A stretch of 16,592 bases of DNA from the IMG/VR virus record IMGVR_UViG_2531839664_000015, positions 1 to 16,592 of that record. One strand, 5' to 3'. Source of the DNA: a virus. Lineage: Duplodnaviria > Heunggongvirae > Uroviricota > Caudoviricetes. The notes under the pieces were generated by a model. That model saw only the letters and a list, made by a program, of their open reading frames with translations. It ran no database searches and was not told where the DNA came from. Each line of letters begins with the position of its first letter. Within the stretch, counting starts at the first letter, position 1. The position numbers and the translations under genes are program-made. Positions 15,308-16,526 of the stretch are shown here, piece by piece.

Positions 15308-15595
15308 ATGAGCAGAAAAACCCAACGTTACTCTAAAGAGTTCAAAGCCGAAGCTGTCAGAACGGTTCTTGAAAATCAACTTTCGATCAGTGAAGGCGCT
15401 TCCCGATTATCTCTTCCTGAAGGCACTTTAGGACAATGGGTTACCGCCGCCAGAAAAGGGCTCGGTACTCCTGGTTCCCGCACGGTGGCTGAACTGGAAT
15501 CTGAAATTCTGCAACTGCGTAAGGCGTTAAATGAAGCTCGCCTTGAGCGAGATATATTAAAAAAGCAACAGCGTATTTTGCACAGGAGTCGCTGA
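15308..15595 (+). CDS. IS3-family transposase OrfA (helix-turn-helix and leucine-zipper region)
   Basis: 95-aa ORF with typical OrfA features (MSRKTQRYSKEFKAEAV..., heptad leucines LESEILQLRKALNEARLERDILKK). The 3' end appears altered by a 1-nt deletion at the frameshift site. Confidence 0.8.
   Translation: MSRKTQRYSKEFKAEAVRTVLENQLSISEGASRLSLPEGTLGQWVTAARKGLGTPGSRTVAELESEILQLRKALNEARLERDILKKQQRILHRSR
15559..15565 (+). other. programmed -1 ribosomal frameshift heptamer A-AAA-AAG of the IS
   Basis: The heptamer sits in the orfA zero frame as ttA-AAA-AAG, the canonical IS3-family slippery motif. Confidence 0.6.
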
Positions 15596-15644
15596 AAAAT
15601 ACGCGTTAATCGAACAATGGCGACAACAATTTCCCATTGAAGCG

Positions 15645-16526
15645 ATGTGTCAGGTATTTGGTGTATCCAGGAGCGGTTATTACAACTGGGTACAGCATGA
15701 ACCCTCAGACAGAAAACAAAGTGATGAGCGGCTAAAACTGGAGATTAAGGTGGCACATATCCGCACTCGCGAAACATATGGAACCCGGCGGCTCCAGACG
15801 GAGCTGGCAGAGAATGGCATCATCGTTGGTCGTGACCGACTGGCACGTCTTCGTAAGGAGCTAAGGCTACGCTGTAAGCAGAAACGCAAGTTCAGAGCGA
15901 CTACGAACTCGAACCACAATCTGCCAGTTGCGCCAAATCTGCTGAACCAGACGTTCGCTCCTACAGCACCAAATCAGGTCTGGGTGGCGGACCTGACGTA
16001 TGTTGCCACACAGGAGGGATGGTTGTACCTCGCTGGCATCAAAGATGTTTATACGTGCGAAATTGTCGGCTACGCCATGGGAGAGCGCATGACAAAAGAG
16101 CTGACAGGTAAAGCTCTGTTTATGGCGCTCAGGAGCCAGCGCCCACCTGCCGGGCTAATCCACCACTCTGATCGAGGTTCACAGTACTGCGCATACGATT
16201 ACCGGGTCATACAGGAGCAGTTTGGTCTGAAAACATCAATGTCGCGTAAAGGTAACTGTTACGACAACGCTCCGATGGAAAGCTTCTGGGGAACGCTGAA
16301 AAATGTGAGCCTGAGCCACTATCGTTTTAATAACCGGGATGAAGCCATCTCAGTAATACGGGAATACATTGAGATTTTCTACAATCGTCAGCGTCGTCAC
16401 TCTCGGTCTGGGGGAATATCTCCCCGGCAGCCTTCAGGGAAAAATATCATCAGATGGCTGCTTAAAAAAAGACAAATGGTAGTGTCCGCTATTGCCAGTA
16501 CACCTCAGTATCCGAAGAGCAGTTAA
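15645..16526 (+). CDS. IS3-family transposase OrfB (DDE integrase core), probably a frameshifted copy
   Basis: DDE triad context (WVADLTYV, HHSDRGSQY, CYDNAPMESFWGTLK). The frame is +1 rather than -1 relative to orfA, and the ORF runs 19 bp past the inferred IS end, while an alternative frame gives a typical ending ...GNISPAAFREKYHQMAA at 16465. Confidence 0.7.
   Translation: MCQVFGVSRSGYYNWVQHEPSDRKQSDERLKLEIKVAHIRTRETYGTRRLQTELAENGIIVGRDRLARLRKELRLRCKQKRKFRATTNSNHNLPVAPNLLNQTFAPTAPNQVWVADLTYVATQEGWLYLAGIKDVYTCEIVGYAMGERMTKELTGKALFMALRSQRPPAGLIHHSDRGSQYCAYDYRVIQEQFGLKTSMSRKGNCYDNAPMESFWGTLKNVSLSHYRFNNRDEAISVIREYIEIFYNRQRRHSRSGGISPRQPSGKNIIRWLLKKRQMVVSAIASTPQYPKSS

Follow-up and report, generated by a model that had tools for sequence, protein, structure and literature searches.

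A frameshifted IS600 copy in the xis gene of an Escherichia coli O121:H19 prophage: probable consensus errors at the end of a draft contig

The prophage DNA analysed here (the window, 16,592 nt) ends in a copy of insertion sequence IS600 whose orfA and orfB, as deposited, are out of the register seen in the canonical element. Six positions separate the window from the same locus in finished genomes of E. coli O121:H19. From the comparison of sequences we assign a probability of about 0.8 to the reading that these six deviations are consensus errors, made where a repeat of roughly 25 copies was built at the end of a draft contig. In the cell, the copy would most likely be canonical in sequence and would work as any IS600. 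What is biologically real here is that IS600 interrupts xis in the prophage, an insertion common to the O121:H19 clone that probably keeps the prophage fixed at its position.

The contig, the prophage and the inserted element

The window is the entire draft contig AEZX02000026.1 (GCA_000194395.2) of E. coli O121:H19 strain 5.0959, whose whole-genome shotgun project, AEZX, is a JCVI draft (PMC3359367). The papers searched name JCVI as submitter and state the serotype, and no sequencing platform for AEZX02 or strain 5.0959 was found in them. The window is covered end to end, at about 100% identity, by four finished O121:H19 genomes of different origin. NZ_CP022407.1 agrees with it base for base over positions 1-15196 and over the last 121 nt, and outside the IS this identical stretch contains 32 homopolymer runs of 6 nt or longer and 8 of 7 nt or longer. 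The window terminates 85 nt beyond the IS600 end. IS600 occupies 20-31 places per O121:H19 genome; in strain 51104, 27 copies were reported (PMC9397093).

Apart from the IS, the window is a prophage early region with tRNAs, hok/sok, replication genes, cI/cro-like genes, DicF/dicB and an 820-aa RecE-like exonuclease. At the contig start, the minus strand carries two phage-borne tRNA genes (22-98 and 199-274); one is a tRNA-Arg (TCT), and the other, with a CAT anticodon, is called Met by ARAGORN versus tRNA-Ile by PGAP in the finished genomes. The sok antitoxin RNA (4568-4742, minus strand), adjoining a Hok/Gef coding sequence, and the DicF small RNA (11976-12027, plus strand), upstream of dicB, both matched at the Rfam gathering score. 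Both RNAs are usual cargo in Qin/Rac-like lambdoid prophages. The 820-aa exonuclease gene is unbroken in the window and in NZ_CP022407.1. In NZ_CP027454.1 (strain 2014C-4423) it is annotated as two overlapping coding sequences, at 437-2900 of the stretch taken from that record (window 12668-15130), which points to a frameshift within that finished assembly.

The element and its insertion site have the following parts:

15202-15243, + strand: first 14 codons of xis, the prophage excisionase gene (MSEVIMIVSPGKWV), cut by the IS
15241-15243, + strand: left copy of the 3-bp target-site duplication GTA, present as a single GTA in the empty site
15244-16507, + strand: IS600 copy (IS3 family), 1264 bp, 99.6% identical to the canonical element, with 1 substitution and 4 single-base indels
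15244-15270, + strand: left imperfect terminal inverted repeat, TGAGGT...CGGACACT, located by end comparison and equal to the canonical one
16481-16507, + strand: right imperfect terminal inverted repeat, ...ACACCTCA, the last 27 nt being equal to the canonical ones
16508-16510, + strand: right copy of the 3-bp target-site duplication GTA, again single in the empty site
16508-16592, + strand: remainder of xis, with the GTA of codon 14 repeated and then SEEQLIALKGIKKGTLKKAREKSFMEG..., running off the contig end

IS600 is a member of the IS3 group of the IS3 family, first described from Shigella sonnei. A BLAST search of plasmids and complete E. coli genomes returned thousands of matches of at least 99% identity annotated as 'IS3-like element IS600 family transposase', and the same-site copies in NZ_CP022407.1 and NZ_CP027454.1 carry that annotation as well. 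As canonical IS600 (1264 bp) we took the sequence that is identical across three unrelated replicons; the alignment references were the same locus in finished O121:H19, the copy on the unrelated E. coli plasmid NZ_CP027556.1 and the S. sonnei pINV copy. The same-site copies of NZ_CP022407.1 and NZ_CP027454.1 are 100% identical to that plasmid copy, and the canonical element stands at this site in four finished O121:H19 genomes. In the window the terminal repeats, of the TG...CA type, match each other at 19 of 27 positions and keep the canonical state.

The prophage is lambdoid, and IS600 interrupts its xis gene after codon 14. The empty site, GGCAAATGGGTATCCGAAG, with one GTA only, is found in E. 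coli O157:H7 493/89 within an intact 83-aa excisionase gene, and the finished O121:H19 genomes show the same disruption of xis by IS600. At the right end, PGAP annotates a hybrid 'xisR' open reading frame that begins inside the IS. The element would have inserted once, at codon 14 of xis in the O121:H19 ancestor, and the prophage is probably excision-defective throughout the O121:H19 clone.

Reading frames of the canonical element and of the deposited copy

In canonical IS600 the orfB frame, at -1 to that of orfA, is open from IS position 304; orfA stops at 365-367, and the overlap measures 61 nt. The only X XXY YYZ heptamer in this overlap is A AAA AAA, at IS positions 316-322. A -1 slip on the A7 run was computed to give a 385-aa OrfAB spanning 1157 nt, exactly the length of the coding sequences that PGAP annotates with a programmed frameshift in the same-site copies of NZ_CP022407.1 and NZ_CP027454.1. 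The mechanism that we infer for the canonical element from its sequence is that orfA would encode a 100-aa helix-turn-helix protein, and that a programmed -1 ribosomal slip on A7 would fuse OrfA to the orfB product, yielding the 385-aa OrfAB as a DDE transposase. Such programmed -1 frameshifting on A AAA AAG-type heptamers is known from IS911, IS150, IS3 and dnaX.

The deposited copy, with its differences from the canonical sequence as placed by alignment, reads as follows:

15197-15198, + strand: AAA>AA, 46 nt outside the IS and 4 nt upstream of the xis ATG
15308-15595, + strand: orfA as written, 95 aa, with HTH_Tnp_1 (Pfam) and an aberrant tail, QQRILHRSR and stop; canonical OrfA has 100 aa
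15559-15565, + strand: A6G run, read A AAA AAG in the orfA frame; canonical A7 at IS positions 316-322
15565-15609, + strand: -1 frame after the run, ATAYFAQESLKNTR and stop, the canonical OrfA C-terminus
15567-15607, + strand: predicted stem-loop downstream of the run, core GCGUAUUUU/AAAAUACGC, minimum free energy -13.8 kcal/mol, z = -1.31; possible frameshift stimulator
15645-16526, + strand: orfB open reading frame as written, 293 aa, with HTH_21 and rve domains, at +1 to orfA and ending 19 nt past the IS end
16306, + strand: A>T substitution, GAG>GTG, OrfB E221V, nine residues after catalytic E212
16405-16406, + strand: GG where the canonical sequence has a single G (+1 nt)
16410-16414, + strand: G5 where the canonical sequence has G4 (+1 nt)
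16415-16465, + strand: canonical OrfB C-terminal coding stretch, NISPAAFREKYHQMAA and stop, out of frame with the orfB body
16472, + strand: AA>A in the non-coding right end of the IS

The zero frame of orfA keeps an X XXY YYZ heptamer in both sequences (A AAA AAG in the window, A AAA AAA in the canonical element), and in the window orfA ends prematurely with ...DILKKQQRILHRSR and stop. The -1 frame from 15565 meets TAA at 15607-15609 after 14 codons and reaches no long downstream open reading frame; a -1 slip on the window run would thus rebuild the canonical 100-aa OrfA and not OrfAB. The orfB frame lies at +1 relative to orfA, with TAA at 15558-15560, and is open from 15561. With orfB at +1, OrfAB cannot be made from the copy as written. 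The predicted stem-loop at 15567-15607 is not distinguishable from shuffled sequences, 20 of 200 of which fold as well.

The initial annotation of this DNA had proposed that one nucleotide was lost at the A/G run, leaving orfB at +1 and the standard -1 slip unable to yield OrfAB. Its positions and frames, at 15559-15609 and at the orfB 3′ end, are all as found in the sequence, and the frame of the -1 reading agrees with its statement on OrfAB. Alignment supports the loss and identifies the missing base as an A (A7>A6), no G having been lost. A second homopolymer frameshift had been placed near the orfB 3′ end. The shift is present, though not as one lesion: two G insertions, at 16405-16406 and 16410-16414, sum to a +2 shift of the orfB tail, which the G5 run alone could not give. 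The alignment to a reference IS600 that had been proposed as a check confirms both the A loss and the shifted 3′ end, and no reference copy was found with GG or G5, so none has identical runs with orfB in the same relative frame. Base by base, it also adds three differences beyond those noted initially: A>T at 16306, AA>A at 16472 and AAA>AA at 15197-15198.

Pfam recognizes HTH_21, rve, rve_3 and rve_2 in the window orfB product. Of the rve-type DD(35)E catalytic domain, residues D116, D176 and E212 are intact and K219 is also present. From residue 255 the last 39 residues are aberrant and the canonical last 18 residues are displaced; the canonical tail, ...GNISPAAFREKYHQMAA and stop, terminates at 16463-16465 in the frame +2 from the orfB body. 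The position outside the element, 15197-15198, reads AAA both in the finished O121:H19 genomes and in the IS-free O157:H7 relative. It falls in the likely ribosome-binding region of xis and is the sole difference from the finished O121:H19 genomes that lies outside IS600.

Distribution of the six differences and of the A6 state

Relative to the same locus in finished O121:H19, the six differences lie between 15197 and 16472, all within 1275 of the 16,592 nt (p = 1.65e-5 by simulation). Five are homopolymer-length changes of plus or minus 1 and the sixth is the A>T substitution. When twenty other IS600 copies were compared with the canonical sequence, 39 distinct substitutions and 3 distinct indels were counted, so that the indel-to-substitution ratio of the window differs from that of the other copies (Fisher p = 2e-4 to 9e-4). 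A survey of 5426 complete E. coli genomes, with 6506 IS600 places, contains none of the four 3′ variants; the best match there has 98.0% identity and differs at all four. Among 153 billion gene positions, the aberrant 293-aa OrfB is found in AEZX02000026.1 only. The GG/G5 pattern gave 0 matches in IMG/VR. The A6 matches in IMG/VR, considered as a source or donor of the window copy, were discarded: they amount to 10 stretches on 8 contigs and belong to other IS600 sublineages with 2-8 substitutions.

The A6 state alone has a wider distribution. It is present in six complete-genome records and many drafts, on at least five substitution backgrounds, and A6 copies with proper target duplications stand at several loci; one of the records is an FDA-ARGOS assembly. 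FDAARGOS_944 and RM12581 are two of the finished genomes with A6. In GCA_949812105.1 all three copies are read without one A in both A7 runs of the element (IS positions 316 and 1220), a pattern that is demonstrably systematic homopolymer undercalling. GCA_974490245.1 holds several IS600 copies, all A6 at IS position 316. For the O145:H28 genomes with A6, the repeat gaps were closed by early PacBio reads (PMC3893438). The A6 state is what a hypermutable, hard-to-sequence run yields again and again, and it does not mark a functional variant.

RefSeq/PGAP applies the label 'programmed frameshift', with a 1156-nt coding sequence, to the A6 copies of NZ_CP007136.1 and NZ_CP129252.1. In the stretches taken from these two records the coding sequence stands at 1277-2432, with proteins WP_085948182.1 and WP_096857480.1, and fusion there would need a +1 or -2 shift. 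We examined the label as evidence of a functional +1 variant and set it aside, since it is derived by the pipeline and assemblies with several A6 copies shorten the second A7 run too. On such copies the label probably causes miscalls or mutations to be passed on as if they were protein variants.

Origin of the differences and comparison with known systems

Taking into account that: (i) the flanks are identical to those of finished genomes; (ii) the copies at the same site are canonical; (iii) the spectrum is one of homopolymer changes; (iv) one change lies outside the IS, and (v) the OrfB as written is unique to this contig, the lesions are most likely errors. Against this, the 15.2 kb of unique sequence on that contig contain no homopolymer error, so the process responsible must be repeat-specific or contig-end-specific. 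Draft consensus is weakest in repeats of this kind. Two further points count against the error reading. The commonest type of homopolymer error is not a 1-to-2 overcall such as G>GG, and A6 alleles of IS600 occur in a few finished genomes (the 6 records mentioned above), which means that a real A7>A6 slippage mutation is possible.

The initial annotation had left the choice between a degenerate copy and homopolymer errors; the pair stands and the evidence favours error. That strain 5.0959 has a decayed, transposase-dead IS600 copy through real private mutations is what the deposited sequence says if read literally, and we consider it unlikely. The zero frame would then give a 95-aa OrfA with a wrong tail, and OrfB would have its last 18 residues replaced and V at residue 221; the ends being intact, the copy would be mobile only through transposase supplied in trans by the roughly 25 other copies. 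Such decay agrees with A7 runs being natural slippage hot spots, with both inverted repeats and the target duplication being intact, and with the A6 copies of finished genomes, on several backgrounds and duly inserted at different loci. It would nevertheless require that, relative to four independent strains of the clone, 1.3 kb had collected six mutations and the 15.3 kb of flank not one, at a ratio of five indels to one substitution that is unlike real IS600 divergence, and with 3′ lesions seen in no other genome or assembly. The AA in place of AAA at 15197-15198 argues further against IS-specific decay, relaxed selection on the IS giving no explanation for a change outside it. If the lesions were real nonetheless, the copy could be a privately inactivated IS600 regenerating only the regulatory OrfA, with the A7 run as a reversible mutational on/off switch of the transposase; we regard this as unlikely. 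Were it true, a switch of this kind would fit the occurrence of A6 alleles on at least five IS600 backgrounds at bona fide insertion sites.

The confinement of the differences to the IS and its immediate edge could also be produced by gene conversion from a degenerate IS600 copy, or by error-prone repair at breaks left by transposition or by IEE-mediated excision; O121:H19 carries many IS600 copies together with an IS-excision enhancer acting on IS3-family elements (PMC9397093). We hold this very improbable. The 5426 complete genomes, O121:H19 included, contain no donor with any of the 3′ variants, position 15197-15198 lies beyond the reach of conversion of the IS, and local mutagenesis has no direct evidence in its favour. 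Least probable of all, to a degree that makes it hardly credible, is that A6 is a functional recoding variant from which OrfAB would arise either through transcriptional slippage on the A run or through a ribosomal shift of +1 or -2. The 'programmed frameshift' label with its 1156-nt span and the A6 copies with proper target duplications at several loci speak for it. However, the label was assigned from protein similarity and not by experiment, and the shortening of the other A7 run in genomes with several A6 copies indicates miscalling. The orfB frame of the window, with its TAA at 15558-15560, opens only at 15561, and the OrfB tail of the window copy would be frameshifted even if fused. A AAA AAG is moreover the classical -1 site of dnaX and the IS3 family, not a +1 site.

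Whichever reading holds, the element is known and its defect is of an ordinary kind. IS600 is textbook material, as is its -1 frameshift, and neither IS copies with frameshifts nor homopolymer miscalls are unusual. The homopolymer lesions in this IS600 copy deserve little biological weight, and AEZX02000026.1 should not serve as grounds for classing the copy as a pseudogene. A6 calls arise recurrently at the A7 run of the IS600 frameshift site, and annotation pipelines that split such copies into orfA and orfB, or label them 'programmed frameshift', generate spurious protein variants.

Compared with canonical IS600, the window copy has the same 1264-bp length, the same TG...CA imperfect repeats, a 3-bp target duplication and the same orfA and orfB domains; it differs by A6 for A7, which puts orfB at +1 instead of -1, by two extra Gs, by one A fewer and by E221V. 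Canonical IS600 resembles IS911, IS150, IS3 and dnaX in having a single heptamer in the overlap; a hairpin is predicted a few nucleotides downstream. In contrast to these systems, a -1 slip on the heptamer of the window would give OrfA and not OrfAB, and the hairpin (z = -1.31) lacks statistical support. With respect to the homopolymer consensus errors of repeats in draft or long-read assemblies, one of the differences is unlike them in being a substitution and one in being a 1-to-2 overcall. The window copy is like them in its run-length changes of plus or minus 1, in lying in a multi-copy repeat where a contig ends, and in variants that are private to one assembly save for the recurring A6, the A7>A6 change being systematic in other assemblies.
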